Shown here: one piece after another, positions 21,296-49,131 of the stretch
How positions within the stretch are numbered: the stretch's first letter is position 1
Layout of the letters: each line of letters opens with the position of its first letter
NCBI GenBank assembly: GCA_016283175.1
Contig: JAEEMK010000075.1
Location: 4,724 to 68,723, forward strand
Length of the DNA stretch: 64,000 nt
DNA from: Bacteroidales bacterium
GTDB lineage: Bacteria; Bacteroidota; Bacteroidia; Bacteroidales; P3
Direction: 5' to 3'
The notes under the pieces: generated by a model
What the model was told of the DNA's origin: nothing
Seen by the model: the letters and a program-made list of their open reading frames with translations, nothing else
Database searches by the model: none
Made by a program: the position numbers and the translations under genes

Positions 21296-24200
21296 ATGTT
21301 TAGAAAGGTACTATTAACGATCGGACTGCTTTTAGCTGCACAGGTAGTGGCTTTTGCACAGGGTACAATGAAAGGTGCCATCACCGACGAGAAAACCGGT
21401 GAACCTCTGATGGGTGCAAATGTCGTTGCCAAGCAGGGTGGTCAAATTATGGGTGGTGGCCGCACAGACTTTGATGGTAACTATACCATCAAGGGCTTAC
21501 AGGTCGGCAAGTATGAGATAGAAGTCTCGTATATGGGCTACGCCACCGTTAAAACAGAAATCAACGTAAAGGCTTCGGGCTTCACGGTCTACAATGAGAA
21601 GCTTACCAAATCTGGTCAGCAGCTCAAGGAAGTTGTTGTGAAGGCACAAAAGGTTCCTGTCATCGACATTGGAGCCCCCGAGTCTGGTACACGTCTTTCG
21701 GCCGATGATATCGGTAAGATGCCTGCCAACTCAGTTGACGGTATCGTCGCCGCTGTTGCCGGTGTGGGTTATAGCGACGGTGGTACTGGTACTGCTCGTG
21801 GTGAGGATGGTATGGTTACCCAGGTGGGTAACGTCCGCACTCGTACTGGTGTCAACGTTCCTAAAGAAGCCATCGCTGAAATCCAGGTGGTGCTTGGCGG
21901 TACTCCTGCCAGCATCGGTGAAGCTATCGGTGGTACCCAGATTATCACTCTTAAACCGCCATCGACAAAGTTTATGGGTCTTGTCAAATACGACACTTAT
22001 CTTGACTATCGTCTGTATAATATGCTCACAGTTTGGCTGAGTGGTCCTGTGGCTAAAACTGCTCTTAAGGATGAACAGGGCAACAAGACAGGTGAACGTA
22101 CTTTTGTAGGATTCCGTTTCACTGGTGTCGGTTCGTACTCGAAATTCGGATACTATCGTTCCAAGGACGGACGTTTCCAGGTCGTTAACGATGAAAAGGT
22201 AATGGAAATTGAGAATGCTCCTATTATCTATGACCCCGTTGAAGGTACGGTTAACTATGCTGCAGAGTTTCTTCGTGCTGAGGACTTTGTCACCATTTCT
22301 CGTCCCAATGCAAAGAACTATTTTGTCAACAAGGATCGCGAGGCTGATTTCGGCAGTTATAGCATCAACTTACAAGGAGCATTGGACTTCCGCTTCACCG
22401 AATTGACTTCGTTGGTTCTCACTGGTGAATATGACTACAGTTATGGTCCAAGCACTAGTTTGAGCTACTTCCCGCTGAACCTCCACAACGCTGCCAACGG
22501 TGTCAACAAAGTGCAGAACATTGTTCTTACTGCTGACTTCACCCAGCGTTTTAAGGATCCGGAGCCTGTAAAGGATGAGAGCAATCCAGATGCAAAGAGT
22601 GAGCCGGTTGTTTCGAAGGTTATGTATAACATCACGGCGATGTTCAACCGTTATAATACACGTTCCTATAATGAGAAGTTCGGTGACGATCTGTTCAAAT
22701 ATGGCCACATAGGTACTTTTGAGAGAACACAGACTCCATCGTACGAAATACGTTCGGACTATAATTACCACGGTACAACACAGACTGCCCACATTCAGAA
22801 CAGCTGGATTGAAAATTCAAAATATATTGCTCCGTCAGAATACAACCCCATTCTGTCGAACTACACATCTCAGCTTTTCAATATTCCTACGCTTGCTCCC
22901 TACCTGACGACATTCGACCTAATTCGCAACTATAATGGTCTTGTCAACGGTTCTTTGCTGGGTACTGTTTACGGTCTTTTCTCCAACGTAGGTACACAGA
23001 GCACTGGTTATTCAAAGAGTGAATACAATTATTATTATTTACAAGCAAAGGCTGCTGCTACCATCAAGGGTCACGACCTTGAAATTGGTTTCCAGTATGA
23101 CCAATATACCCACGCTTCGTACGGCATTTCTGCCTATTCTCTGTGGACTCTGATGCGTCAGTCGGCTAACGCTCATATCACTCAGTTGGACTTCAACAAT
23201 CCTATTGAGCATTTTGAGAATTCGGAACTGTTTGTCGACTATAACCGTTTGAACGGTGGTGGACAGACCTGTTTCGACGAGTCATTGCGTCGTGCCCTTG
23301 GTCTTGATGTCAATGGTACTACCTGGCTCGATATCGACCGTTATTCACCGGATGATTACAACAGTTTCGGTGGTATTAATATGTTCTCCGCTAACGAACT
23401 CTTCAACAGCGGCAACCAGATGGTCAGCTATTATGGATATGATCACACCGGTGAGAAGTATCGTTCCAGCACTTGGAGTCTCGACGACTTCTTCGATCCT
23501 GTAAGCCGTGGTCACAAGAACTTCCAATATTTGCCGGTTTTCTCACCTATCTATGCGGCAGGTTATATTCAGGACAAGTTCTTCTTCCAAGACCTTATCT
23601 TCAACGTCGGTGTACGTGTTGACTACTATGATGGTAACCAGATGGTCTTGAAAGATCCTTATCTGCTTTATGAATCCTACACTGTTGCCGACCTCAACAA
23701 TGGCAAGGCAGCTTTTGTCACTGGCCTTGACAACAATGCATTTCCGGCAGGTGTTCAGGATGATTGGGTAGTCTATGTTGACGATGCAGGTGCAACCACA
23801 CCCACAATCCGTGGTTATCGTGATGGAAGCATTTGGTACAATGCCGAAGGTGTTCAGGTTACTACGCCGAGTGCAATCTCTGGTGAATCTGGTAGACCGA
23901 CTCCTTACCGTACTACCGGTGAGGGTGGTGGACAGCAGACTGCCACGACTGGTAATGGCAGTGGCAACCGTATCTCTGCCAATGCTTTCAAGGACTATGA
24001 TCCGCAGATTGTTGTTATGCCTCGTATCGCTTTCTCGTTCCCCGTCAACGATATGTCGCAGTTCAAAGCCAACTATGATATTATTGCACGCCGTCCCTCT
24101 TCGGGTTGGCAGGCTGACTATTTCAGCTATCTTTATATGACTCAAGCCAACGGCTACATCAATAACCCGAATCTGAAACCTGAACGTATTACCAACTATG

Positions 24201-25087: not shown

Positions 25088-25114
25088 TATCGTAATGTGA
25101 AAAATTATAAAGAG

Positions 25115-28100
25115 ATGAAAAATATATTTATTAAAACAGTCTTATTGGCTTTCCTGTTCTCATCAATGATGGGGACAGCCGCTGCTCGAGAGTGCACCAC
25201 CTGCAAGTCGAAGAGCGCGAAAAAGGCTGCCGTGCAGTCGAAAGCTGCTGTGTGTAAAAGAGCACAGAGTACTGCCGAGTTGAATATCAACAATGTCCGT
25301 GCGTTGATTAACGGATACGGCAATATGTGGTATGACGGCAGTATTACACAGTACCATATTCCTAAAGACGGTACGTCCACTCCTCTGTATTGTGCTGCAC
25401 TGTGGATTGGTGGTACTGACGTTAATGACCAGTTGCGTCTTGCCGCTCTCCGTTTTGGTCAGGAAGGCGACGATTATTGGCCCGGCCCTCTTACCATTGA
25501 CGGTACCGCCGACGTTAGTATTGAGGTCTGCAACTATTATGACAGACATTACAAAATTAGTCAGGCTGAAGTTCAGTCATTTATGCAGATGTTTGACTAT
25601 ACAGCCAATCCTCCGCAGCCTAACGAGAAGTATGACGAAGGTGCAATTTCGCAGGCTATTAAAGAGTGGCCCGCCCACGGTAATTTTGCCAACCAGTCTT
25701 ATTATCTGGCACCGTTCTTTGATGCCGATGGAGACGGTGAATACAATTACCAGAATGGTGACTATCCATACTACGATTTTGACAACGCCTTGTGCCCTCG
25801 TACGTTGAAGGCAAACCTGAAACGTGGCGAGACTTACAAACCCTTCCCTACAATGGAGGATTCTTTGGGTATTGTCAAAGGTGGTCTTCTTTCTGACCAA
25901 GTTCTGAAAGGCGACCAGACCATTTGGTGGGTATTCAATGATATGGGAAACACTCACACCGAGTCTGGTGGACAGCCCATCGGTCTTGAAATTCGTGCCC
26001 AGGCATTTGCTTTCTCGACCAATGACGAAATCAACAATATGACATTCTATACCTATGAAATCATCAACCGTTCGACCTATGAACTGCGTAATACCTATTT
26101 CAGCCAGTGGGTTGACCCGGATTTGGGCTATGGCTATGATGACTATATTGGTTGCGATGTCAAGCGCGGTCTTGGCTATTGCTACAATGGTAAGGATGTT
26201 GACGGTCCTGGAACAGGTTCGTACAGTGGCATTCCTCCCGCAGTAGGTATTGACTTCTTCCAGGGACCCTATATGGATGCCGACGGTAAGGACAATCCCA
26301 AGATTGATATTAACAAAATGCGTATCTATTATCCTGAAAAGCTTGCTAATTATTGGATTGACAGTCTTAATGTATATGATACCATTATGCTCTCCGACGA
26401 TGCCGACCTTTTCTATCCTCTTGCTTGGTATTTCCAGGCTGACGACTCGATAGGTAACTGCGCCATCAACGGTGTCAACTTTGGTAACAATATTGTTGAC
26501 GACGAGCGTTTTGGTATGCGTCGTTTCGTGTACTACGACAACAGCAGCAGCAACATCAACGGTGAACCGAGCAAAGCTACTGACTATTACAACTATTTGC
26601 AAGGTTTCTGGAAGAACGGTTCGCATATGAAGTATGGTGGTAATGCAATCTCTACTGGTACTTCCTCACTGAACTGTGACTTTATGTTCCCCGACGATAG
26701 TGACCCGTTGCATTGGGGTACCAATGGTGTAGTTCCTGACGATGAGTTCCATCCTAATGACTGGACTGAGGTTACCTCTGGTGACAACGTGACTCCTGGT
26801 GACCGTCGTTTTATGCAGTCTGCAGGACCCTTCACATTGAAACCTGGTGCTGTCAACTACATTACCGTAGGTATTCCGTTTGCACAGGCTTCCTCTGGTA
26901 ACAGATGGACTTCAGTTACTTTGCTTCGTGAAATAGACGATGTCTGCCAGGCTCTCTTCGAGAACTGTTTCAAAGTCCTTGACGGTCCTGATGCTCCTAC
27001 ACTGATTGTCCAGGAAATGAGCAATGAAGTTATTCTTTATATTACTTATGATAACCCTGCTTCCAACAACTATGGTGAATCCTATGATGAGGAAGATGCT
27101 TCAATTCTGAAATCTTATCCAAGTGAACTTCGTCACTATAAATTTGAAGGTTATCAGGTTTATCAGCTTGCCAACGCCAATGTTTCCATTACCGACATTG
27201 GAGACGAGACCAAAGCTCGTTTGGTTTACCAGTGCGACATAGAGAACTACTATGATGACACTGCCTCAAACCCGACTCTGCCTATTGCCAAGTTGGTTAA
27301 CTACACCTCCAACTCTTCCACGGGCCTTTTGACTGGTAGAATTATGGTTGATGGTGCCAATGCTGGTATCAAGCACGTAATCCGTGTCACTACTGACCTC
27401 TTCGCCAACGGAACAAGTACAAATCTTGTGAATAATAAGGAATATTACTATGTTGCTGTTGCTTATGCACACAACCGCTTTAAAGAGTATTCGCAGACTG
27501 ACCCCAACAAACTTGATGGCCAGAAAGAGCCTTATCTGGCAGGCCGCAAAAACGAGTATGGCGGAACCATTACCCCGGTTATTGCCAAACCGCACAATCC
27601 TTCATCGGAAAATGGTGGTACCATTGTTCAAGCTACCTATGGTATGAGCCCCAACATCACTCGTATCGAAGGCTTCGGTAACGGTGGCAACGTCCTTCAG
27701 CTTACAGAAGAATCCATAGTCGAGCTTATGGGTGAACCGGGTGTTGCTGGTAAGGGACCAGGACGTATGCAGGAGTACACAACTGGTGGTACTTACACCG
27801 CTGTTATGAACAATCCTTGCATCATTTCTCATCCCCGCTATGAGCAGAACGCAGGTCCTGTAAACGTTCGTATTATTGACCCGCTCAACATTAAGGAAGG
27901 TCAGTTCTATATCAACTTCACTGGTGTAAGCGATTCGGCCAAGTGGTCAATCTCGAAGGTTGACGGCACTCCGCTGTACTACGTTAAGACTGGCAGCAAT
28001 GATTCCGTTGGTGTCTATACGGACACTGCAGACTTTGTAATTAGCCGTTACAACGAGCAGCTCTTCCTCGACCTCGGTATTGCAGTTGCTATCACCAATC

Positions 28101-29896
28101 CTAAGGACATTGCCACGCCGCTTAACGTTACCGCTAACGGTGTTATGGGCGGTCTTATCAACGATGGTACCCTCCTGTCGGCTTCGATGTCATTCTCTGA
28201 CAACAACCACCAGTGGCTGACTGGTATTCCCGACAATGATAACTATCCTGTATACAACTGGATTCGAAGCGGTGCCCAGTATGCTGAAAACAACCTTTCT
28301 GTTTTCGTAACTGGTTCTGGCGAATTCACCGGCAATGAACTTTATCTTGATGAAGACTACTATAAGAGCCAAGTCGTTGACGGACGTGTATCCTCTTATG
28401 CTGTTGATAAATATCAAGCTTTTGAGAAAGTCCTATCGGGCACTTGGGCTCCTTATGGTCTTGCTTCGACCCGCGAGTATCATCCCGCATTTTCGTACCG
28501 CTATTATATGACTGAACAGGACATCCTTGACTCGCTCCACGCGCAGGATGCTATGTTCAACCGTAACTACTATCAGAACCTGCGCTACACTCTGTCGCAC
28601 AAGAGAAACAAATCTCTTATGTTCAACGACTTCTCGAAGTTGCCGAGTGTTCGTATCGTTATGACTTCCGATACTACTAAGTGGACTCGTTGCCCGGTTC
28701 TTGAAATGTGCGACGACTACACGCAGTCGGAAGGCAATGCCCGTCGTTTCCAGATGCGTAGGCACGCTTCTATCGACAAGAATGGTGATACTGCTACTGT
28801 CGCCGGTGCCTCGACCGATCCTGGCAGCCCCAATTACATTAGTGATCGTGGTATGGGTTGGTTCCCTGGCTATGCTATCAACCTGGCTACTGGTGAGCGT
28901 CTCAACATTATGTATGGCGAGGATTCTCGTTATGCACAGTTCAATGGTCGCGATATGATGTGGAATCCTGTCAGCACTGTAACTGTAGGTACATCGAACT
29001 ACATTATGGGTGGTCGCCACTTCATCTATGTGATGAATGCCATTTCGCAAGATTTCCCATATTATCACGTCTCGCGTGATGACTATATGCCTTACACCTA
29101 TGCTTCGCCTTCTTACGACGCTGGTGCCTGGGCAGTGAAAATGCTTAAATCTCTTGATCACTTCTTCGAGTGTCCTTATCCTAACACTTCTGCCAACGCT
29201 CAGAAGATTAAGGACTATTACAAAGAGTTCAACAAAGGTTTGCTGAAGTACGAAGGTGCAAAATATATTGTTCCAATCCGTGACTCCTCGGCCTTCCTCT
29301 TCTCGACTGTTGCTTGGGTCAATATGCCAATCGTCAATGAGAATATCAACAATCCTAAAGATATCCCTTGCGATGTCACCATCGACCTCAACGTCAACAA
29401 CCGCTACGGCAGATTCTTGAGCGACAACGGTACAAAACCCGAGAATGCCGGCCTCACTACAATCAACAGCAACAATCCTATGTATATGTTTGAGCTTACT
29501 CCCGACATTGTAACCCTTACCAATGTCGCTACTGGAGCCAATGCTCGCCAGAGCTACAAGGATTCCATTATGGAAGCAATCAATGTTGTACCTAACCCTT
29601 ATTACAGTTATTCTAAATACGAAACCGCTAGTCAGTTGGAGACTAAGGTACGCTTCATCAATGTGCCGGGCAACACCACCATCACTATCTACACGATTGA
29701 TGGTACCCTTGTCCGCACCTTCCCGAACACGCCTAGCAACACGACAACATACGATTGGGATCTTCACAACCACAATGGTATTCCCATTGCCGGTGGTCTC
29801 TACCTCATTCACTTCAACACACCGGGCATCGGTGAACGCGTAGTGAAATGGTTTGGTACGATGCGTCCTGTCGATATGAGTGGTTTCCAGTTCTAA
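25115..29896 (+). CDS. Very large secreted protein with T9SS type-A C-terminal sorting domain (function unknown)
   Basis: The track start 25097 is a GTG, so I used ATG 25115 (MKNIFIKTVLLAFLFSSMMGTAAA signal). The last 85 aa or so (VVPNPYYSY...TTITIYTIDGTLVRTF...YDWDLHNHNGIPIAGGLYLIHF...) match the Por secretion tail pattern. No other domain recognised. Confidence 0.75.
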   Translation: MKNIFIKTVLLAFLFSSMMGTAAARECTTCKSKSAKKAAVQSKAAVCKRAQSTAELNINNVRALINGYGNMWYDGSITQYHIPKDGTSTPLYCAALWIGGTDVNDQLRLAALRFGQEGDDYWPGPLTIDGTADVSIEVCNYYDRHYKISQAEVQSFMQMFDYTANPPQPNEKYDEGAISQAIKEWPAHGNFANQSYYLAPFFDADGDGEYNYQNGDYPYYDFDNALCPRTLKANLKRGETYKPFPTMEDSLGIVKGGLLSDQVLKGDQTIWWVFNDMGNTHTESGGQPIGLEIRAQAFAFSTNDEINNMTFYTYEIINRSTYELRNTYFSQWVDPDLGYGYDDYIGCDVKRGLGYCYNGKDVDGPGTGSYSGIPPAVGIDFFQGPYMDADGKDNPKIDINKMRIYYPEKLANYWIDSLNVYDTIMLSDDADLFYPLAWYFQADDSIGNCAINGVNFGNNIVDDERFGMRRFVYYDNSSSNINGEPSKATDYYNYLQGFWKNGSHMKYGGNAISTGTSSLNCDFMFPDDSDPLHWGTNGVVPDDEFHPNDWTEVTSGDNVTPGDRRFMQSAGPFTLKPGAVNYITVGIPFAQASSGNRWTSVTLLREIDDVCQALFENCFKVLDGPDAPTLIVQEMSNEVILYITYDNPASNNYGESYDEEDASILKSYPSELRHYKFEGYQVYQLANANVSITDIGDETKARLVYQCDIENYYDDTASNPTLPIAKLVNYTSNSSTGLLTGRIMVDGANAGIKHVIRVTTDLFANGTSTNLVNNKEYYYVAVAYAHNRFKEYSQTDPNKLDGQKEPYLAGRKNEYGGTITPVIAKPHNPSSENGGTIVQATYGMSPNITRIEGFGNGGNVLQLTEESIVELMGEPGVAGKGPGRMQEYTTGGTYTAVMNNPCIISHPRYEQNAGPVNVRIIDPLNIKEGQFYINFTGVSDSAKWSISKVDGTPLYYVKTGSNDSVGVYTDTADFVISRYNEQLFLDLGIAVAITNPKDIATPLNVTANGVMGGLINDGTLLSASMSFSDNNHQWLTGIPDNDNYPVYNWIRSGAQYAENNLSVFVTGSGEFTGNELYLDEDYYKSQVVDGRVSSYAVDKYQAFEKVLSGTWAPYGLASTREYHPAFSYRYYMTEQDILDSLHAQDAMFNRNYYQNLRYTLSHKRNKSLMFNDFSKLPSVRIVMTSDTTKWTRCPVLEMCDDYTQSEGNARRFQMRRHASIDKNGDTATVAGASTDPGSPNYISDRGMGWFPGYAINLATGERLNIMYGEDSRYAQFNGRDMMWNPVSTVTVGTSNYIMGGRHFIYVMNAISQDFPYYHVSRDDYMPYTYASPSYDAGAWAVKMLKSLDHFFECPYPNTSANAQKIKDYYKEFNKGLLKYEGAKYIVPIRDSSAFLFSTVAWVNMPIVNENINNPKDIPCDVTIDLNVNNRYGRFLSDNGTKPENAGLTTINSNNPMYMFELTPDIVTLTNVATGANARQSYKDSIMEAINVVPNPYYSYSKYETASQLETKVRFINVPGNTTITIYTIDGTLVRTFPNTPSNTTTYDWDLHNHNGIPIAGGLYLIHFNTPGIGERVVKWFGTMRPVDMSGFQF

Positions 29897-29926
29897 TTAT
29901 CATCAAACATTTAAATTTTGACAGAA

Positions 29927-30997
29927 ATGAAAAGAATATTAAGTATATTAACTGTAATGGTCCTCACAGCGTCGCTGTCGGCACCCAGCGTATTCGCCGG
30001 CAACGACAACCGTAGAGGAACGGCAGGTGCTACGGAACTGCTCATCAACCCTTGGGCACGCAGTTCTAGCTGGGGTGGCATCAACACCTCCTGTGCACGC
30101 GGCATTGATGCTTTCTTCAGCAACATCGCTGGACTTTCATTCGTTGAGAAGACTGAATTCGTTTACACCAACACTATCCTTTACGGTGGTCGTAGCGGTC
30201 TCCGCAGCGGTGCCTCGGTCAACGCTTTCGGTCTTGCCATCCGTTTGGGCGACGCTGGTGTTTTGGGTGCTTACGTTATGGCTATGGGCTGTGGTGACCT
30301 TCCTATTACCACTGAAAACAGCCCTGAACCTGGCAGCAATGGTACCTTCTCACCGACGCTGATGAACCTCAACGTGGCTTTCTCCTATTCGTTTACCAAC
30401 TCAATCCACGGTGGTGCCAACATCAAAGTTATCACCGAGTCGACCGACGACATAGGAGCAACAGGCGTTGCTATCGATGCCGGTATCCAGTATCAAACTG
30501 GTGAAAACGACGAGCTCAAGTTCGGTATCTCCCTCAAGAATATCGGACCCGCTCTCAGCTTCAGTGGTACTGGTATGGCTTTCACCACAGTCAACGAATC
30601 TGGTAACTCGATGACCGTTGAACTTCGTGAGTCCGAAATGGAGCTTCCTACCTGTCTGAATATCGGTGTCTCCTATGATTTCCTGTTTGAGAAGTGGAAC
30701 CAGCGCCTCACAGCCGCTGCCAATTTCACATCCAACGCATTCCTTCGCGACAACTTCGGTATCGGTTTCGAGTACTCGTTGCTTGACCGTTTCCAGGCAC
30801 GTGCAGGCTATGTCTATCAGACCGATATCTTCGACAGCGACAACCGCACTACCGCCAATACTGGTATCCACGCTGGTGCCTCTGTCCTCTTCCCCTTCGG
30901 CAAGGACGGCGACAAGAATCTTTCGCTTGACTACTCATACCGCAGTGCCGGCAACCTGAAAGGCAGCCACTCCATCGGAGCCACTTTCAAGTTCTAA
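29927..30997 (+). CDS. PorV/PorQ-family outer-membrane beta-barrel protein
   Basis: Trimmed to MKRILSILTVMVLTASLSAPSVFA. RRGTAGATELLINPWARSSSWGGINTSCARGIDAFFSNIAGLSF mirrors the G-AGA-FL-I-ARA-GMGGA...NPAGLA N-terminal signature of PorV/PorQ. It ends ...HSIGATFKF. Confidence 0.65.
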   Translation: MKRILSILTVMVLTASLSAPSVFAGNDNRRGTAGATELLINPWARSSSWGGINTSCARGIDAFFSNIAGLSFVEKTEFVYTNTILYGGRSGLRSGASVNAFGLAIRLGDAGVLGAYVMAMGCGDLPITTENSPEPGSNGTFSPTLMNLNVAFSYSFTNSIHGGANIKVITESTDDIGATGVAIDAGIQYQTGENDELKFGISLKNIGPALSFSGTGMAFTTVNESGNSMTVELRESEMELPTCLNIGVSYDFLFEKWNQRLTAAANFTSNAFLRDNFGIGFEYSLLDRFQARAGYVYQTDIFDSDNRTTANTGIHAGASVLFPFGKDGDKNLSLDYSYRSAGNLKGSHSIGATFKF

Positions 30998-31986: not shown

Positions 31987-32019
31987 CCGTTTTGTTCAAA
32001 ACACAGGTGCAAATTCATA

Positions 32020-32059
32020 TGCCTTTGGAGACTTCCAGCCTCCAAAGGCATTTTTTTTT
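32020..32059 (+). terminator. Rho-independent terminator of greA-HIT
   Basis: TGCCTTTGGAG acttccagc CTCCAAAGGCA followed by T9. Confidence 0.8.
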
Positions 32060-32625
32060 GCTATATAGCATAATCTTTGTAATTTGTAGTAAATATTTTG
32101 AAATCGAAAAGATGGAGGCTGGTCGACACATTCATTGAACACTAAGTATTTACTAAAGGAACGTCCGCAATCAAGAAAAGAAACCCCTATAAGGCAAATC
32201 TTTCATATTGCTGTAATTCGAGTATACAGATAAACATTAATTTATAGTATTACCAAACTCTTTCCCCAACGCCTTTTTTTTGTTAAAACTTTATTGTATA
32301 AACAAGTGTAAAATTAACATTTTGCAAGTTGCTGATTATTAGAAACGTTGCAAAGGTGCGTATACCTATCTATAGGCTAAATATCTATAAAACAGTTACC
32401 AAATACTTATAAAAGTTCACTAAAAGCGTACATATGTAGAATTTGGTAGGTATTTGGTAAGAAGATGGTAAAAAGATAATTCTTGGAAAACAGAGGGTTA
32501 GGAGTGGGTCTTGGTAGGGTGTTTTTGGACGATTTTAGAGGAAAATGGCGCGAAAATGGCTTTGAAATGTTAAATTTTAACATTTGCTGATGGATTGTTG
32601 TGCTTTGTTTGTGGGGTGACAAAAA

Positions 32626-32655
32626 GATGACGCCGCAGGGAACTGCGGCGTCATC
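32626..32655. terminator. 13-bp-stem hairpin downstream of purM (usable on both strands)
   Basis: GATGACGCCGCAG ggaa CTGCGGCGTCATC. On the minus strand it is followed by TTTTTGT. On the plus strand a T9 run follows after a 7-nt spacer. Confidence 0.6.
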
Positions 32656-32695
32656 GAGAGAGTTTTTTTTTATCTTGTAAGTCTTGTGACGGCGG

Positions 32696-33891: not shown

Positions 33892-33959
33892 CGAATTTTT
33901 TGCCGTTTGAAGAAAAAAATGTAATTTTGTACAATCTAACGATTATCCACAGAAACTAT

Positions 33960-34592
33960 ATGGATTTAAAACTCAATAAAATAGTATTGTCGTTTTGCCT
34001 TGTGGCGCTTCTTTTTCCTGCTGCACTCCGGGCGCAAAGCAGTGGTGAGACGATGGGGTTGCGCAACGATTTGAAGCTTACTTTGCTTTCGTTGGGCAGT
34101 GGCTCGACACGCATCACCTACGAACGTGCCTTTAGTAAGAGAAACAGTGCGGAGCTGACGGTGGGATTCATCGGAATGGGATGGGACTGGATGAACCACG
34201 CGCGTTCCAAGGGGCTATTGGGCAAGTTCGCGTACAAATGGCGCCTGATTCCGCAGGGTTCGTCGCGCAGCTGGCTGGCGGGAATGTATGTAAAGCCCGA
34301 GTTGGTATATGCGCAGTTCGTCTATGGTCCGCAACGAGGCAGAGAAGGAATGAGGACGAAAGCACGTGGCGATATGTCGTCGACAGCCCCCGAGGAGACC
34401 CGCCAGTTCGCCCTTCTTGCTGAATGTGGCTACCAGCTTTTGTGGGATTGGTTTTTGTTCGATGTGTACTGCGGCCTTGGACCGTCATTCGGAACAGGTA
34501 ACAGTAACAATTATTATCACAGTTTTATGCTTTACCCCTCCGACGGACGTCTGGCTTTCACGGCCGGTTTCCGTATAGGTGTGGCTTTTTAA
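33960..34592 (+). CDS. Small outer-membrane beta-barrel-like protein (first gene of the PqqD operon)
   Basis: Trimmed to MDLKLNKIVLSFCLVALLFPAALRAQS (signal peptide). Alternating-hydrophobic strands. The C-terminal ...FTAGFRIGVAF has a terminal Phe. It lies 10 nt before the PqqD-like ATG. Confidence 0.5.
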   Translation: MDLKLNKIVLSFCLVALLFPAALRAQSSGETMGLRNDLKLTLLSLGSGSTRITYERAFSKRNSAELTVGFIGMGWDWMNHARSKGLLGKFAYKWRLIPQGSSRSWLAGMYVKPELVYAQFVYGPQRGREGMRTKARGDMSSTAPEETRQFALLAECGYQLLWDWFLFDVYCGLGPSFGTGNSNNYYHSFMLYPSDGRLAFTAGFRIGVAF

Positions 34593-34602
34593 ACGTCTAG
34601 AA

Positions 34603-34869
34603 ATGAAGATTTTGTCCAAATACAAAGTGCGCGATGTCGCGGGTGAAAAGATCGTAATGGTGCAAGGCCGGAACCCTGGCGATATGACTACGGTCATCGC
34701 CCTCAACGAGACGTCGCTCTATCTATGGGATAATTTGTATGGTCGGGATTTCGAACAGGGTGATGTCGTTGCTTTGCTTTTGGAACGCTACGACGTGGAT
34801 GAGGCTACGGCTGCAAAGGACGCATCCAGATGGATTGAAACATTGCGAGAACACAATATATTGGGCTGA
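34603..34869 (+). CDS. PqqD-family protein (RiPP-recognition-element-like peptide chaperone)
   Basis: 88 aa from the ATG (MKILSKYKVRDVAGEKIVMV...). VIALNETSLYLWDNLYGRDFEQGDVVALLLERYDVDEATAAKDASRWIETLREHNIL follows the PqqD pattern (LN-t-iW...ei...l...y-vd-e-a-Dv-fl-L). Confidence 0.7.
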   Translation: MKILSKYKVRDVAGEKIVMVQGRNPGDMTTVIALNETSLYLWDNLYGRDFEQGDVVALLLERYDVDEATAAKDASRWIETLREHNILG

Positions 34870-35735
34870 TGGGAGTTGTGCTGTATGTCGGTGGCCATAG
34901 GCTTGTGGTTGAAGGCGATTGCGCCGAGCGTTTCCTGCGCTCTTATAATGGTGCGCAGCCGTTCATAACCGACCTTTGCGAGGCAGATTGGACGGTGCGT
35001 TACGGCATTTCCCTTGAGCCTGCAACAGACGGCGAGACATTAAGCGAATTTACATTCAGTGAAATTAACTCTCATTGCCAGTTCGGGCGCTGTGGCGACG
35101 ACTATTACTATGAGATGTACGACTCGCAAAGCGGCGCTAGGCTGATTGCTATGCGTCACCGTAGAGGCAGTGACTATGTGGAGGCGACAAATTGTGCAAA
35201 TCCGTCGGCACTGCGCTTCTCGCTATGGTTTGCCTATAGTATGCTGGCGGCATCGTCAAAGACCACTTTTGTGCATAGCTCGGTGATTGTATATGGAGAT
35301 CGTGCCATACTGTTTCTCGGCGAGTCGGGAACCGGCAAGAGTACGCACACACGCTTGTGGCTTGAGAATATCGGTGAAGCGCAGCTGCTCAATGACGACA
35401 GTCCTGTTCTTGCCATCGAGAACGGTAAGCCATACGTCTTTGGGAGTCCTTGGAGCGGAAAGACGCCTTGCTACATTGCGCGACGGTTTCCGTTGGGGGC
35501 ACTTGTGAGACTTTCGCAGGCTCCTCAGAACAGAATGCACCGCCTGTCGATTCCTGAGGCGCTGGCTGCGTTGCAGCCCTCGCTGCCTCCGGCACTGATG
35601 CAGGACGAGTACTTTGCAGACAGGCTTATTGATATTGTTTCCGACACTATCTCGGCGGTTCCGGCCTATCATCTGGGATGTCTGCCAGATGCTGATGCCG
35701 CACGTTTGAGTTGTAGAACCATTTTTGGTGACTGA
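34869..35735 (+). CDS. HPr-kinase-C-terminal-like P-loop protein
   Basis: 288 aa. Its ATG overlaps the PqqD TGA (cTGATGg). Walker A AILFLGESGTGKSTHTRLW is followed by LLNDDSPVL, mirroring HprK GxSGxGKS...L-xDD. The N-terminal half is not recognised. Confidence 0.6.
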   Translation: MGVVLYVGGHRLVVEGDCAERFLRSYNGAQPFITDLCEADWTVRYGISLEPATDGETLSEFTFSEINSHCQFGRCGDDYYYEMYDSQSGARLIAMRHRRGSDYVEATNCANPSALRFSLWFAYSMLAASSKTTFVHSSVIVYGDRAILFLGESGTGKSTHTRLWLENIGEAQLLNDDSPVLAIENGKPYVFGSPWSGKTPCYIARRFPLGALVRLSQAPQNRMHRLSIPEALAALQPSLPPALMQDEYFADRLIDIVSDTISAVPAYHLGCLPDADAARLSCRTIFGD

Positions 35736-35736
35736 T

Positions 35737-36540
35737 ATGAGTGAAAAACGTCTGATATTGCCAAACGACGCTAACGGTTTCATCGTTGAGGAAATAAAAA
35801 ACCGTCTCAGCCAGGGGCTTACGGTGACCATTGCCTTTGGCGGCAACAGTATGCTGCCCACTATCGACGGTAGCCGTGACCTCGTGGAGTTGGCCGAGAC
35901 AAAAGGTGAGTTGCACTGTGGCGAGGTGTATCTTTTTGTTTTTAGAGGACGTTGTGTGGTTCATAGACTTCTTAGGATAAATGGCGACGAATATGTTTTC
36001 CGTGGCGACAACAACCGTTACACGGAAAAAGTCGGCCGCGATGCGGTGCTGGCACGGCTGGTGGCTGTAAAACACAGCAATGGCAGTGTTGAGAGCTGCG
36101 ACACGCGGCAATGGCGTTGCAAGTCGCGCCGTGCCTCTGTTTTACGCACGTTGAAAAACTTGCCGTATGCCTGGTTTGGCAGTAGCCAACGCAGATGGCA
36201 GCGATGGGTGTATATATCAATACTTTTGGCGCTTATGTGGGCACCGGTCGGCGGACTTGGCATACAGCTGGACAGTATGGTGCTCAACATACGCCTCGAC
36301 CACCTGCTGCACGCATCGGTATACTTACCCTTTGTGTTTTTCATAATGGATTTTGGCCATATGAGGCCGCGAGGGTATGTGCTTCATTGGCTTTCGGGGT
36401 TGCTCTTTGCTGCTGTCACCGAAGCAGGACAGCTGCTGCTCTTTTATCGTGGATTTGACCCCAGTGACCTTGTCGCTAACTTTATCGGCGTCACTTTGGG
36501 TTGGCTTTTAGTATTGCTTTTGAAATATAAAAGGCAATAA
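35737..36540 (+). CDS. SipW/archaeal-type (Ser/His) S26-like peptidase domain fused to a VanZ-like membrane domain
   Basis: The ATG is 1 nt after the preceding stop (the track start is a TTG). GGNSMLPT (Ser), VVHRLL (His in place of the LexA/SPase I Lys) and FRGDNN. The C-terminal half has about 4 TM segments with the VanZ-like pattern HLLHASVYLPF...EAGQLL...DPSDLVANFIG. Confidence 0.65.
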   Translation: MSEKRLILPNDANGFIVEEIKNRLSQGLTVTIAFGGNSMLPTIDGSRDLVELAETKGELHCGEVYLFVFRGRCVVHRLLRINGDEYVFRGDNNRYTEKVGRDAVLARLVAVKHSNGSVESCDTRQWRCKSRRASVLRTLKNLPYAWFGSSQRRWQRWVYISILLALMWAPVGGLGIQLDSMVLNIRLDHLLHASVYLPFVFFIMDFGHMRPRGYVLHWLSGLLFAAVTEAGQLLLFYRGFDPSDLVANFIGVTLGWLLVLLLKYKRQ

Positions 36541-36595
36541 ATCAGTGTGTTTGTTTTGTAGCGCTGATTTTTGCCGCCATTTGTGAAAAAAGTTG

Positions 36596-36603
36596 TATCT
36601 TTG
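36596..36603 (+). promoter_or_regulatory. -7 promoter box (TATCTTTG) of the GT2 gene
   Basis: TAnnTTTG 25 nt upstream of ATG 36628. This implies the GT2 gene can be transcribed independently of the upstream operon. Confidence 0.45.
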
Positions 36604-36627: not shown

Positions 36628-37353
36628 ATGTCAGATACATTGGTAATTACGCCGACATATAACGAAAAGGAGAATATTGAGAGAATCATTCGCAAAGTCT
36701 TTTCGCTTGAAAAGGAATTTGATATGCTTATTGTCGAGGACAACTCGCCCGACGGTACGGCCGACATTGTGAAGCGACTTATGCAGGAGTTCCCCAATCG
36801 TCTATTTATTAAGGAGCGCAAAGGCAAACTTGGTCTTGGCACTGCATATCTGGAAGGTATGCGATGGGGCAATGAGCACGGCTATGACTATATGATTGAG
36901 ATGGACGCCGACTTCAGCCACAACCCTGACGACCTGCCGCGCCTTTACGAGGCCTGTTCGACTGGCAAGGGCGATGTGGTTGTGGGAAGCCGCTATGTCG
37001 ACGGAAAGATCAGTGTCGTCAACTGGCCTATGGGCCGCTTGATGATGAGCTACTATGCCTCCAAGTATGTCCGCATAGTGACTGGTATGAAGGTATGCGA
37101 CGCCACGGCAGGTTTTGTCTGCTGGAGCCGCAAGGTGTTGGAAAAGATGAAGTTTGACAAGGTGAAATTCGTTGGCTATGCCTTCCAGATAGAGATGAAA
37201 TACACCGCCACGCGTCTTGGTTTCAAGGTCTACGAAGTGCCCATCATTTTCACCGACCGTGTCCTTGGTACCAGCAAGATGAGTATGAAGATCTTTAAGG
37301 AGGCCTTCTTTGGAGTGTTCAACCTTCGTTTCCGCAACTGGCGTAACTATTAG
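36628..37353 (+). CDS. Polyprenol-phosphate mannosyltransferase-like family-2 glycosyltransferase
   Basis: Trimmed to MSDTLVITPTYNEKENI. EDNSPDGT and MDADFSHNP (DxD) are typical of Dpm1-like GT2 enzymes. Confidence 0.85.
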   Translation: MSDTLVITPTYNEKENIERIIRKVFSLEKEFDMLIVEDNSPDGTADIVKRLMQEFPNRLFIKERKGKLGLGTAYLEGMRWGNEHGYDYMIEMDADFSHNPDDLPRLYEACSTGKGDVVVGSRYVDGKISVVNWPMGRLMMSYYASKYVRIVTGMKVCDATAGFVCWSRKVLEKMKFDKVKFVGYAFQIEMKYTATRLGFKVYEVPIIFTDRVLGTSKMSMKIFKEAFFGVFNLRFRNWRNY

Positions 37354-37448: not shown

Positions 37449-37847
37449 ATGCTGACGCAAGAGGAAATGTATGATTTAATGTACGAGGTCCGCGGTGCTG
37501 CGATGGAGGTATATAATCATTTCGGTCCAGGATTGTTGGAGTCGGTTTACGAGAAAGCAATGATACAAGAATTGACTTTGCGAGGGTTGAAAGTGGAGTC
37601 TCAGGTTCCCTTGACAATACAATATAAGGGGACTTTGATTGGAAATGATTTAAGATTGGATTTGCTGGTGGAAGAAGAATTGGTTGTGGAACTGAAGTCA
37701 GTGGAAGAAATAAAGGACATTTATTATAAGCAACTAAGGACATACCTGAAACTGCTCAACAAAGAAGAAGGTTTACTGATTAATTTTGGCGAATACGATC
37801 TGAAGAACGGAATGAGACGCGTAACAGTAAACGAATACAAAAGGTAA
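37449..37847 (+). CDS. GxxExxY-family protein (PD-(D/E)XK-like)
   Basis: 132 aa. GPGLLESVYEKAMIQEL carries the eponymous GxxExxY motif, followed by RLDLLVEEELVVELK. Confidence 0.85.
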   Translation: MLTQEEMYDLMYEVRGAAMEVYNHFGPGLLESVYEKAMIQELTLRGLKVESQVPLTIQYKGTLIGNDLRLDLLVEEELVVELKSVEEIKDIYYKQLRTYLKLLNKEEGLLINFGEYDLKNGMRRVTVNEYKR

Positions 37848-46182: not shown

Positions 46183-49131
46183 ATGCATCGTGTGAAATAT
46201 CCAATAATCAAATATATAGCGTCGCTGCATCGACAATTGGCATTTTCTATGATGCCCGTTTTGATGATGCCGTTTATTTGCAATGCACAGTATATACCGA
46301 GTAATGGCATTTCTGTGTTGGAAAATAGTTCGCAACAGTTTGTGTTTGACTTTTCCGTTAAGGATATTTCGGTGAAACCGATAGATTCGGTGTATGTTGT
46401 TGTAAATACTCCTGCTGCAAATAGCTATAGTCGAGATGAAGGCAAACCTATGCTGCCACAGTACTGCCAGATTATCTCGCTCCCCATAGATGGTGATTAT
46501 ACGCTCACATTCGATGATGAAGAATGGCAAATATATAGTCTTGAACAGCTTGGGTGCGACGGTACTATTGTCCCGTCATTACCAGCACGTCCTAAGAACG
46601 AAGATGCATTTGATTTTAAGTTTGATACTTCAGTGTACGGTTATGATACTTTTTGGGGTAATGACCTTGTCAGAATAGAGGATATGGGTGTGATGCGTGG
46701 GGTTCGCCTGGCACGTTTGACAGTTTCTCCTGTACGATATAATCCTGTGGGGCACAGTGTTGCGGTATGCCGTTATTTATCTGTCGTGATCTCTTATTCA
46801 AAAAAACGTGAGACTTTGTGTGATCAGATGCATTTGGGACTGGATTTTGATAATGGCAAGGAATATTCTAACCAACTGATAGGAGGAAGCCCTTATACAT
46901 ATATGGTTGTTGCTCCGCCGCATTTCCGTCATACACTTCAGCCTTTTGTTTCGTGGAAGCGCCAAGAAGGTTATGCTATCGAGGAGTTTTACCCAGCATA
47001 CAATGATAAGAATGCAATAAAAGCGTTCTTACAGCATCGTTATGATAATGCAACGTCAAATTTTCCGGCACCTCTTTTTATTTTGCTTGTAGGTGACGTG
47101 CAGGATATTCAGGTTTGGCCGGCCAATTTCCATATAAATGGGATTGATGTTCATCGTACTGATTTATATTATGCTGAATATACTGGTGACTATATGCCAG
47201 ATGCTCTTTTGGGACGTATCTCGGTAAGGGACACGGCTACCCTTGCTCAAATTATTAGTAAGACAATAAAATATGAACGTTTCGAGTTTAGCGATAGTGG
47301 CTATTTGGGTCGTAGTCTATTGGTTGCTGGAAAGGAAGAGGCTCCTCCTGCGCCGACAGTCACAAACGGACAGATTAACTATTTGAAATCGATTATTATA
47401 CAACACGACAGTTTGCACGACACAGTGTGCTTTTATAATCCTTCATCTGATACAATGTCGAACAGGATACAGGATTGTCTGCGGCAAGGTGTAGGTTTTG
47501 TTAACTATACGGCACATTGTACATCGCAAGGATGGCGTCATCCTCTGTTGAGCAGTATTGACATTGATTCACTTTCTTTAGGTTCACAGCCTTTCCTTTC
47601 TATAAACAACTGTTGCAGGGTAAACGACATTAGTGGCGACTGCTTTGGTGAACATCTGTTGCAGAAAGCGCCTGGAGGAGCTGTGGGTGTTATTGGGGCA
47701 AGCAACGAAACACTTTGGGATGAGGACTATTTCTGGAGTGTCGGAGGTAGTGGCATTCCCTCGCTTTATCCGCAATATTCTGATTTGCCCGGTGCATATG
47801 ATCGCCTATTTCATATAAACAATGAACCTGTGTCTCAACGAGCTGTTACTCAGTCGCAGATAGTACTGGCCGGTAACTGGGCAGTCTCCGAAAGTGGTTC
47901 GCCATACGATGGTTTCTATTGGGAGATTTATTCGTTGCTGGGAGACCCTTCATTGATGCCATATATTGGTGTGCCGGCATCGCAACAACTTGAGATTGAT
48001 AGTTTTTATACGGGCGACATTCAGATTGTTGTTCACGGTACGCCTGGCGCACGGGTGGCAGCAACATATAATGATACTCTCTATGGTGTTTGCACTATCA
48101 ATGACGAAGGTAATGCAATGATGACCACTTTTATGTCGGTTCCAGACAGTCTTCTTTTTACCGCCACTGCACAATATCATAAACCTATACAGAAAAGTGT
48201 CAGGTCAATAGTGCCAGACTCTCCGCGTATTGTTGTGACAGATATGGCAATTCAGAATGTAAGTGGCAATGATATCGATCGTTTTACCTTGTGCGACAGT
48301 GCTGTAGTGATTGTTACTGTGCGCAATGTCGGTTCGCAGAGTGCAGATGGTCATAGTTTGCATATATCAGCTGGTGATGCCGATGTACAGTCTTTCATAA
48401 TTGCATCTTTGATGCCTGGCCAAGATACAATTGTCAAATTCACTGTTTGTCCAAAAATCAGACAGGAGGAACTGACTATTACGTTCGAAACTGCTGACAG
48501 CGTTGTATATTGGAGTCATTCGAGAAGTTATGATGTGTTGGTTGCCAATACAGAAATAATGGCATTGAAGTTGATGCACGATGATGAGCCTGTGTCTACG
48601 GTCTTGCCGACAACAACATACGAGATAAATGCCATTGTTGTCAATAGAGGAATCGGGGTTGCAAAAGAGCTGAAAGCATCAATTGAAGATTGTGGAAGTG
48701 TATATGTTGGCGACCTTGATGCGGGCGACACGGCGCAATGCATATTCGATTATGTATCACCTGACGAGGCTGACAGTGTTGCCATTGCTGTATGTGTTAG
48801 CCATCGTGCAGACACGATTGTGAATACTTTTATTTTCGCTGTCGAAGATACATCGCAGGCAGTACTGACTGTAGAGGAATCCAATAATGTTAAAATTTTA
48901 CCAAATCCCGCGGATGATTTTGTGATATTTAGTGGATTGAGTGCTCAAACTCACATCGTGATATATGATATTTATGGACGCAAAGTGAAAGATTTTTTTG
49001 CTGAAAATGGCTCTATGATGCAATATTCCACCAGGGAATTGCGTTGTGGCATCTACCACGTTATGTTTTACACAGGACAGCAGAATGCTAAACGGCTGCA
49101 AAAAACAGCAAAACTGGTTATAGCTCGATAA
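46183..49131 (+). CDS. C25-family (gingipain/PorU-like) cysteine peptidase with T9SS C-terminal sorting domain
   Basis: 982 aa. The gingipain-like catalytic contexts are FVNYTAHCTSQGW (His) and FLSINNCCRVNDI (Cys). The C-terminal VKILPNPADDFVIFSG...IVIYDIYGRKV...GIYHVMF is a type-A CTD. Confidence 0.75.
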   Translation: MHRVKYPIIKYIASLHRQLAFSMMPVLMMPFICNAQYIPSNGISVLENSSQQFVFDFSVKDISVKPIDSVYVVVNTPAANSYSRDEGKPMLPQYCQIISLPIDGDYTLTFDDEEWQIYSLEQLGCDGTIVPSLPARPKNEDAFDFKFDTSVYGYDTFWGNDLVRIEDMGVMRGVRLARLTVSPVRYNPVGHSVAVCRYLSVVISYSKKRETLCDQMHLGLDFDNGKEYSNQLIGGSPYTYMVVAPPHFRHTLQPFVSWKRQEGYAIEEFYPAYNDKNAIKAFLQHRYDNATSNFPAPLFILLVGDVQDIQVWPANFHINGIDVHRTDLYYAEYTGDYMPDALLGRISVRDTATLAQIISKTIKYERFEFSDSGYLGRSLLVAGKEEAPPAPTVTNGQINYLKSIIIQHDSLHDTVCFYNPSSDTMSNRIQDCLRQGVGFVNYTAHCTSQGWRHPLLSSIDIDSLSLGSQPFLSINNCCRVNDISGDCFGEHLLQKAPGGAVGVIGASNETLWDEDYFWSVGGSGIPSLYPQYSDLPGAYDRLFHINNEPVSQRAVTQSQIVLAGNWAVSESGSPYDGFYWEIYSLLGDPSLMPYIGVPASQQLEIDSFYTGDIQIVVHGTPGARVAATYNDTLYGVCTINDEGNAMMTTFMSVPDSLLFTATAQYHKPIQKSVRSIVPDSPRIVVTDMAIQNVSGNDIDRFTLCDSAVVIVTVRNVGSQSADGHSLHISAGDADVQSFIIASLMPGQDTIVKFTVCPKIRQEELTITFETADSVVYWSHSRSYDVLVANTEIMALKLMHDDEPVSTVLPTTTYEINAIVVNRGIGVAKELKASIEDCGSVYVGDLDAGDTAQCIFDYVSPDEADSVAIAVCVSHRADTIVNTFIFAVEDTSQAVLTVEESNNVKILPNPADDFVIFSGLSAQTHIVIYDIYGRKVKDFFAENGSMMQYSTRELRCGIYHVMFYTGQQNAKRLQKTAKLVIAR

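Follow-up and report, generated by a model that had tools for sequence, protein, structure and literature searches.

We examined a compact group of four genes within a 64,000-nucleotide stretch of DNA from a Bacteroidales bacterium (GenBank assembly GCA_016283175.1, contig JAEEMK010000075.1, positions 4,724 to 68,723 of the forward strand); this whole 64 kb stretch is referred to as the window, and positions are those of the window. The genes, designated g1 to g4, occupy positions 33960–36540 (Table 1). All positions agree with the tight same-strand packing described in the original prediction, with a 10 nt gap between g1 and g2, a 1 nt TGATG overlap between g2 and g3, and a 1 nt gap between g3 and g4. 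That prediction, made from the sequence, described an outer-membrane barrel, a PqqD-type protein, an HprK-like P-loop protein and a SipW-type peptidase fused to VanZ, and proposed that the four recognise, phosphorylate, cleave and export a substrate encoded elsewhere.

Scanning metagenomes for members of the g4 family yielded 80 loci, and neighbouring genes were counted over the testable loci among them. A g3 homologue lies directly 5' of the peptidase::VanZ gene in all 66 testable loci, and a PqqD gene is next upstream, adjoining the kinase-like gene, in 62 of 62, whereas a g1 homologue is beside the trio in 11 of 55. Because of this difference in linkage we regard g2–g4 as the functional module, and the four-gene unit originally claimed is reduced to three genes from which g1 is separable. 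In close relatives (53–79% identity) the gene order is GreA, HIT, a purM-like gene on the reverse strand, g1 to g4, a family-2 glycosyltransferase (GT2), DPP-IV and riboflavin synthase, and the trio is a reduced form embedded among housekeeping genes. The ratio of nonsynonymous to synonymous substitution rates (dN/dS) is 0.10–0.15 for all four genes in comparisons with two relatives (L004 and L054), and g1–g4 are under purifying selection.

The assignment of g2 to the PqqD family is confirmed by a match to Pfam PF05402 with an E value of 9e-14 and a score of 52 bits (cutoff 23.4). Its best NCBIfam models are those of lasso-peptide B1 chaperones, with scores of about 20 bits against cutoffs of 70–80. 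When the g2 family profile was compared with the PDB, it retrieved TfuB1 (1.1e-7), LppB (9X8Z, 0.039), TbiB1 (0.047) and PbaB1 (0.16), all of which bind leaders with a [Y/W]xxP motif (PMC13381572). Judged by these profile matches, g2 is a discrete PqqD-type recognition element (RRE) for ribosomally made, post-translationally modified peptides (RiPPs), resembling LppB and the lasso B1 proteins.

The motifs GESGTGKST and LLNDDSP are both present in g3, and its description as an HprK-like P-loop protein holds for fold and motifs, but not at the family level. Pfam and NCBIfam scans gave weak P-loop, PEPCK and HprK_rel_A matches and no significant match to Hpr_kinase_C or to an HprK model of NCBIfam, and the precomputed Pfam family of g3 homologues is PF27840, 'ScmC'. 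In an alignment of 35 homologues, H136, S138, GxSGxGKST (151–159), NDD (175–177) and GSPWSGK (192–198) are invariant. For an AlphaFold2 (AF2) model of g3, with a pLDDT of 96.7, Foldseek matched both domains to ATP-PEPCK (E 1.5e-7) and the C-terminal domain to HprK/P (E 1e-4), and the family profile aligned with ATP-PEPCK 1j3b in the PDB over the segment running from the histidine to the P-loop. We describe g3 as a two-domain P-loop protein of the HprK/PEPCK fold and predict that, by analogy with the kinase LppK discussed below, it acts as an ATP-dependent peptide serine kinase.

Profile scores, invariant catalytic boxes and fold matches agree that g4 is a SipW-type peptidase fused to VanZ. The VanZ part scores 34.1 bits against PF04892 (cutoff 30.1), the peptidase part matches Peptidase_S24 with an E value of 1e-3, just under the Pfam cutoff, and many homologues are annotated with PF00717 or PF10502 together with PF04892. 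Among 23 homologues the peptidase boxes GxSMxP (S38), H76-R77 and G90-D91-N92 are invariant, and so are DHLLH (188–192), E229, Q232, R238, D241, D244 and N248 in the VanZ domain. The model of the N-terminal domain has the fold of LexA, SpsB and SipA, and the AF2 model places helices at residues 149–168, 187–206, 211–234 and 242–266. Because g4 has no N-terminal hydrophobic anchor, carries 10 lysine or arginine residues ahead of the first transmembrane helix and ends in the basic tail KYKRQ, the positive-inside rule predicts that the peptidase domain is cytoplasmic. The SM-P, HR and GDN boxes are shared with the S26B signal peptidases of the SipW/Sec11 type, but a secretory type I signal peptidase has an N-terminal anchor and a non-cytoplasmic catalytic domain, and g4 is predicted to have neither; as its catalytic domain is predicted to be cytoplasmic, g4 probably does not act in secretion as a signal peptidase. 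VanZ proteins are associated with the cell envelope, and VanZ of Tn1546 lowers lipoglycopeptide binding; g4 passes the Pfam score for this family, but its VanZ domain is joined to a peptidase in one polypeptide. No significant match came from searching the PDB with the single sequences of g2, g3 and g4, and it was the profiles and fold searches that were informative.

The same three kinds of protein are neighbours in the clusters for linear polyphosphorylated peptides (LPPs) of Bacillota (Popov et al., Nat Commun 2026; PMC13381572). Their core comprises LppS (WP_029196374.1), which is a signal peptidase of the SipW or archaeal type, the discrete RRE LppB, the HprK-like kinase LppK, the NTP-transferase LppN and the MsbA-like pump LppD, together with a precursor, LppA, whose leader motif is YxxPxVLxHQxIxFETxxS (PMC13381572). 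In a heterologous host LppK places one to four phosphates on Ser3 of the core; LppS then removes the leader, the unphosphorylated precursor being a poor substrate, and in vitro this cleavage requires LppB and residues S29, H68 and D93 of LppS (PMC13381572). The authors describe LPPs as restricted to Bacillota and their biological role as unknown, and mention neither VanZ nor Bacteroidota (PMC13381572). The earlier statement that the gene combination had no characterised function is thus outdated, and the defined pathway that it had named as grounds for abandoning the idea is in part now available.

Like the window, LPP clusters combine a PqqD-type RRE, an HprK-superfamily P-loop enzyme and a SipW-type peptidase, and a lasso cyclase and a B2 protease are missing from them as they are from the 17 flanking ORFs scanned in the window. 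By analogy, g2, g3 and g4 would correspond to LppB, LppK and LppS, and S38, H76 and D91 of g4 can be set beside S29, H68 and D93 of LppS, a comparison made by published residues and not by the LppS sequence. The window differs from LPP clusters in that LppN, LppD and a local LppA are missing (three of six gene-content criteria), the peptidase is fused to VanZ, the surroundings are housekeeping genes and not capsule loci, and the host belongs to the Bacteroidales and not the Bacillota; also, g3 falls into Pfam ScmC and is not recognisable as Hpr_kinase_C. Taking these together, we think it probable that g2–g4 constitute a minimal LPP-type maturation module. In such a module g2 would bind a small precursor, whose gene lies outside the window, through the YxxP motif of the leader, g3 would use ATP to phosphorylate a serine near the leader–core junction, and the peptidase domain of g4 would cut off the RRE-presented leader, with the VanZ domain keeping this peptidase anchored on the cytoplasmic side of the inner membrane. 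The serine phosphorylation, the order of steps and the RRE dependence of cleavage are inferred from LppK, LppB and LppS, and the module would act in trans on a precursor made from a distant gene. Of the scheme originally proposed, the logic of recognising, phosphorylating and cleaving a remotely encoded substrate is supported, but export through g1 has no comparative support.

The g3 family is large (7,756 clusters at 50% identity, E <= 1e-3), and in species-representative genomes its members occur in Alistipes, Mediterranea, Prevotella, Segatella copri, Muribaculaceae, Cryptobacteroides, Sphingobacterium and Fibrobacter, where the g3 homologue is accompanied by a PqqD gene and a VanZ-less S24/S26 peptidase of about 150 residues. 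An ABC exporter of about 545 residues accompanies the g3 homologue in 20 related loci, and an NTP_transf_5 protein of about 370 residues (E 1e-35 to 1e-40) in 10 loci of Bacteroidota or Fibrobacter. A full five-gene set of NTP_transf_5, ScmC-like kinase, S24/S26 peptidase, PqqD and ABC exporter is present in both Bacteroidota and Fibrobacter; the Bacteroidota cassettes share with LPP clusters the NTP-transferase, the exporter and, as candidates, YxxP precursors with a serine just past the predicted junction. In four Alistipes loci (L009–L011 and L040) the ABC exporter, the kinase-like gene and the S26 peptidase adjoin, and phmmer found no PqqD protein within 8 kb on either side; the gene for an Alistipes RRE may lie at another site, or its product may have diverged beyond detection.

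Beside the related cassettes we identified 14 small open reading frames (ORFs) at 11 loci as candidate precursors (Table 1), from Mediterranea, Prevotellaceae, Muribaculaceae, Bacteroidaceae, Limimorpha, Sphingobacterium, Fibrobacter and unclassified Bacteroidales. Clustering of small ORFs across loci with blastp-short returned only PqqD and antisense artefacts, and the candidates were obtained by a YxxP regular expression and iteration with a hidden Markov model (HMM). When the candidates are anchored on the tyrosine, 14 of 14 have a proline at +3 (Y1-x-x-P4), 14 of 14 are hydrophobic at position 17 and 11 of 14 have a serine at position 20, although the set was partly gathered by an HMM seeded on its first members, which inflates the apparent conservation of the motif. 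This serine is 19 residues after the tyrosine, and the phosphorylated serine of LppA is at position 19; the motif following YxxP reads ...h17-x-x-S20 in the candidates as against ...FET/xxS in LppA. A profile of the candidates compared with the PDB retrieved neither LppA nor lasso leader chains, and one chance NEMO peptide was returned. The two Sphingobacterium humi paralogues lie 3.6 and 5.9 kb 3' of a complete S26-PqqD-NTase-ABC-kinase cassette, and as the strain is cultured this locus (L024) offers a convenient experimental entry point.

Four of the loci with candidate precursors are of the peptidase::VanZ subtype itself. In these, an ORF of 59 residues is located 5–6 kb downstream of the trio and directly 5' of a gene for a 533-residue lipoprotein; at L075:15606-17349 (reverse strand), and likewise in L076, L081 and L087, the YxxP ORF ends at the start of the lipoprotein gene, and the two may be co-transcribed. 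The lipoprotein (signal ...LVSC) is conserved, belongs to no Pfam family and has no homologue in the window.

Table 1. Features of the g1–g4 region in the window and candidate precursors at related loci (locus handles are our own)
Feature	Position or locus	Strand	Description
Promoter-like motif, Bacteroidetes type	33899-33929	+	TTTG-N-TAATTTTG; 31 nt 5' of g1 ATG; consensus match only
g1	33960-34592	+	210 aa
g2	34603-34869	+	88 aa
g3	34869-35735	+	288 aa
g4	35737-36540	+	267 aa
g4 N-terminal domain, residues 1 to ~122	35737-36102	+	SipW/Sec11-type Ser/His/Asp signal-peptidase-like, putative leader peptidase, LppS-like
g4 C-terminal part	36103-36540	+	basic linker helix and VanZ membrane domain (~4 helices)
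Second promoter-like motif	36580-36603		before GT2 gene; consensus match only
Family-2 glycosyltransferase (GT2)	36628-37353	+	Pfam Glycos_transf_2, E 2e-27; own promoter-like motif
Candidate precursor	L008		MEEKMNYVAPEVEIVEVEVEKGFAASGTDVPGGGVDPF
Candidate precursor	L022		...KTYEAPKAELIEMQMPTVLMASAGDQ...
Candidate precursor	L027		...KMYEAPKAEMIQMNVDKNFMAGGEGEST...
Candidate precursors	L018, L020		common C-terminus IWD(D/E)EW
Candidate precursors	L014, L028, L038 (Fibrobacter)		one apiece
Candidate precursors	L024:12204-12404, L024:14503-14706		Sphingobacterium humi paralogues, common block ELEQGIA(S/T)SSAT(F/V)TP
Candidate precursors, peptidase::VanZ subtype	L075, L076, L081, L087		59-aa ORF, ...KQVYDAPVVEMLQARVEKGFAGSQ...

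The family-level assignment of g3 raises the possibility that the pathway is RRE-guided as proposed but that g3 is not a serine kinase, and instead carries out another ATP-dependent step (activation for elimination or cyclisation, or nucleotidylation) or serves as an ATP-driven scaffold, as may be the case in SynChlorMet cassettes. Pfam places g3 homologues in ScmC and not in Hpr_kinase_C, the NCBIfam HprK models score far under their cutoffs on g3, and the best structural match is PEPCK over both domains and not HprK. Distant g3 relatives from Anaerolineae, Elusimicrobia and a deltaproteobacterium, which are near the SynChlorMet ScmC model, sit with PqqD and radical-SAM/SPASM enzymes and with Cys-rich peptides having a YEKP leader (L041, L044 and L046). 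To our knowledge, phosphorylation by the ScmC-family proteins in these radical-SAM contexts has never been shown. However, the phosphoryl-transfer motifs of HprK and PEPCK (the histidine, the P-loop and the DD pair) are all invariant in the g3 family, g3 homologues in the Bacteroidota cassettes are accompanied by NTP_transf_5, which also partners the peptide kinases of paeninodin-type lasso and LPP clusters, and the candidate precursors keep a serine at a set distance from YxxP. We consider a non-kinase g3 possible but clearly the less likely reading.

The surroundings of the trio have to be weighed against a maturation module as well. Searches with phmmer found no homologue of the ABC exporter or of NTP_transf_5 in the whole 64 kb, and no precursor-like ORF was found across the same range, the best HMM matches having E values of at least 20 and lying antisense to or inside genes. 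Radical-SAM enzymes, a lasso cyclase and a B2 protease were not found by Pfam among 17 flanking ORFs, which include most long ORFs between 21296 and 49131, the remainder of the window not having been scanned. The original report of no precursor, cyclase, radical-SAM enzyme or exporter nearby is thereby borne out within the ranges searched. The window therefore lacks three of the six functions that make up the LPP core, and the trio could be a functionless, decaying remnant of a fuller LPP-like cluster that has lost its precursor, exporter and NTP-transferase. This is highly improbable given the dN/dS values of 0.10–0.15, the invariance of catalytic residues down to 36–40% identity and the persistence of the reduced architecture in more than 60 metagenomic loci.

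The same absences, of exporter and precursor alike, would also fit a housekeeping role in the cell envelope, in which the trio, together with the GT2 and, here, g1, processes or regulates either a protein of the envelope or membrane or a pathway of lipid-linked glycans. The conserved neighbours GreA, HIT, the purM-like gene, GT2, DPP-IV and riboflavin synthase would be in keeping with such a role, as would the envelope association of VanZ proteins, the presence of the GT2 directly 3' of the trio in 34 of 61 loci, and the lack of any mobile-element or defence signature, none of the four proteins matching a PADLOC defence model at E <= 0.1. Yet discrete PqqD-type RREs are known solely as binders of peptide leaders, and the same peptidase::VanZ subtype has YxxP small ORFs 5–6 kb away. 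Sister cassettes have dedicated ABC exporters, and both the GT2 and the barrel gene are dispensable, being missing from 27 of 61 and 44 of 55 loci respectively. On balance an envelope housekeeping function is unlikely.

Several observations nevertheless count against an LPP-type module. A precursor, exporter and NTP-transferase were found neither in the 64 kb window nor, in the closest relatives (L001–L005 and L052–L067), within flanks of 7–10 kb per side (less at contig ends). The Pfam family of g3 is ScmC and not Hpr_kinase_C, and ScmC-family proteins partner radical-SAM enzymes in other phyla (L041, L044 and L046). The RRE profile fits the actinobacterial TfuB1 (1e-7) better than LppB (0.039), and the enrichment of the candidate precursor set for its own motif, described above, belongs here too. 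Finally, g3 and g4 are likened to LppK and LppS by description and not by sequence, and the resemblance could reflect either common descent or convergent assembly.

If g2–g4 are an LPP-type module, the VanZ domain could be more than an anchor. It might couple cleavage of the leader to movement of the phosphopeptide through the inner membrane or into it, perhaps along with further glycosylation fed by the GT2 (of the polyprenyl-phosphate type), and so replace the ABC exporter and NTP-transferase, with the trio acting as a chromosomally fixed, trans-acting maturase. We regard this extension as rather improbable; if it were true, it would provide the first defined biochemical role for VanZ domains, and LPP-type peptides would be common in gut and rumen Bacteroidota and not a speciality of Bacillota.

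Relative to the searchable literature, the new elements are the spread in Bacteroidota and Fibrobacterota, the candidate precursor family, the peptidase::VanZ fusion and the reduced three-gene form among housekeeping genes. Two RRE-mining papers (PMC7470986 and PMC12710340) and a study of RiPP mining in Bacteroidales (PMC10352776) do not mention the kinase/peptidase cassette. The comparisons indicate that the machinery to recognise, phosphorylate and cleave is widespread in gut and rumen Bacteroidota and in Fibrobacterota, and they supply concrete sets of precursors and enzymes in abundant gut anaerobes as well as a possible route to the function of the VanZ family, which is still enigmatic. 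Because the core logic has already been established experimentally for LPPs, the extension is incremental and not categorical.

Other systems that combine related proteins were also compared with the locus. SynChlorMet cassettes (TIGR04248 ScmD, TIGR04249 ScmC and TIGR04250/1 ScmE/F) also pair a PqqD-family with an ScmC-family P-loop protein, but g3 and g2 have no match to TIGR04249 and TIGR04248 at E <= 1, the broader PF27840 being found on homologues only. SynChlorMet cassettes further differ in having two radical-SAM/SPASM enzymes, of which there are none among the 17 scanned ORFs at 21296–49131 (the rest of the window being unscanned), and in having no peptidase::VanZ protein. We found no mention of SynChlorMet in the papers searched, where 'ScmC' occurs only as unrelated acronyms. 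The paeninodin and pseudomycoidin lasso clusters, with a B1 RRE, an HprK-like kinase and in some cases a nucleotidyltransferase, are similar in their B1-like RRE and YxxP-type leader logic, and their HprK-fold tailoring kinase phosphorylates a serine of the precursor (PMC7533575, PMC13381572). By contrast, no macrolactam synthetase C or B2 cysteine protease is present among the 17 flanking ORFs scanned in the window, and leader removal would fall to a serine signal-peptidase homologue. In the HPr-rel-A system an HprK-superfamily protein adjoins a PqqD-family protein, as here, but there is no second kinase, and the TIGRFAM comparison suggested earlier gave 13.9 bits for HprK_rel_A against a cutoff of 200, with no match to PqqD_rel_X or HprK_rel_B. 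Within the ranges scanned, the locus is not a SynChlorMet, HPr-rel-A or lasso cluster.

In three SynChlorMet-like cassettes, Cys-rich small ORFs adjoin ScmC (L041:7380-7601, L044:1655-1882 and L046:8668-8844). They have a leader of the form K-x-Y-E-K-P (KKTYEKPKMK, KKPYEKPKVS and KKSYEKPEIK), which makes them candidate precursors or substrates. We know of no precursor that has been assigned to the SynChlorMet cassette.

The g1 gene was predicted to encode a secreted, barrel-like protein, and both its N-terminal signal peptide (MDLKLNKIVLSFCLVALLFPAALRA/QSS) and its C-terminus (...GFRIGVAF, ending in an aromatic residue) are confirmed; going by these two features, g1 is a small secreted protein of the outer-membrane type. 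Pfam and NCBIfam scans assigned it to no family. The g1 family is small, with 149 proteins, all from Bacteroidales metagenome-assembled genomes, and its dN/dS is 0.10–0.14. Homologues also occur without the trio, in unrelated contexts in L049 and L051 and, in L050, on the GreA-HIT-purM backbone from which the trio is wholly missing. Because of these trio-free homologues and its presence in 11 of 55 loci, g1 is a lineage-specific neighbour and not an obligate part of the module, and on the same phyletic grounds it was ruled out as an exporter component.

The promoter-like motifs in Table 1 bear on how the genes may be transcribed. The window contains 12 copies of the pattern TTTG-N10-20-TAnnTTTG where 3.4 would be expected, and such sites flank g1–g4 on both sides, with none within the operon. 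A single g1–g4 transcript, with a predicted start near 33936, would be consistent with this placement, the motifs being consensus matches only. A scan for sigma-70 promoters and terminators was uninformative for a Bacteroidales genome. A functional tie of the GT2 to the trio is speculative.

In one relative of 79% identity (L004), the HIT and purM-like genes are separated by an island (L004:1433-5477) that encodes a 51-residue Cys-rich peptide, MGKLEISNEMMQKLESLKNSLNCGNTVNSLNGNPTACSSCWGGSCANGFTG, two PapB-like radical SAM/SPASM enzymes and a 346-residue membrane protein. Both PapB-like enzymes seemingly have no N-terminal RRE, and the island is one gene away from the free-standing PqqD. Its counterpart in the window is a 700 bp AT-rich intergenic gap (31990–32690). 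The island was considered as a source of the missing maturase and precursor and was ruled out, since it is PapB-like and is missing from the window and from most relatives; it is probably an independent cluster of the ranthipeptide type.

Elsewhere in the window, a PD-(D/E)XK nuclease-superfamily gene (PDDEXK_3, E 1e-40) is located at 37449–37847 between the GT2 and DPP-IV genes, and because DPP-IV directly follows GT2 in L001–L005 it looks like a small insertion. Two ORFs of 1599 and 359 residues with no Pfam match lie at 25097–30997 and are kept 5' of GreA in L001–L003 and L050. At 46183–49131 the window encodes a gingipain-like C25 peptidase that carries a sorting domain for type IX secretion, from which we infer that the genome has a type IX secretion system.

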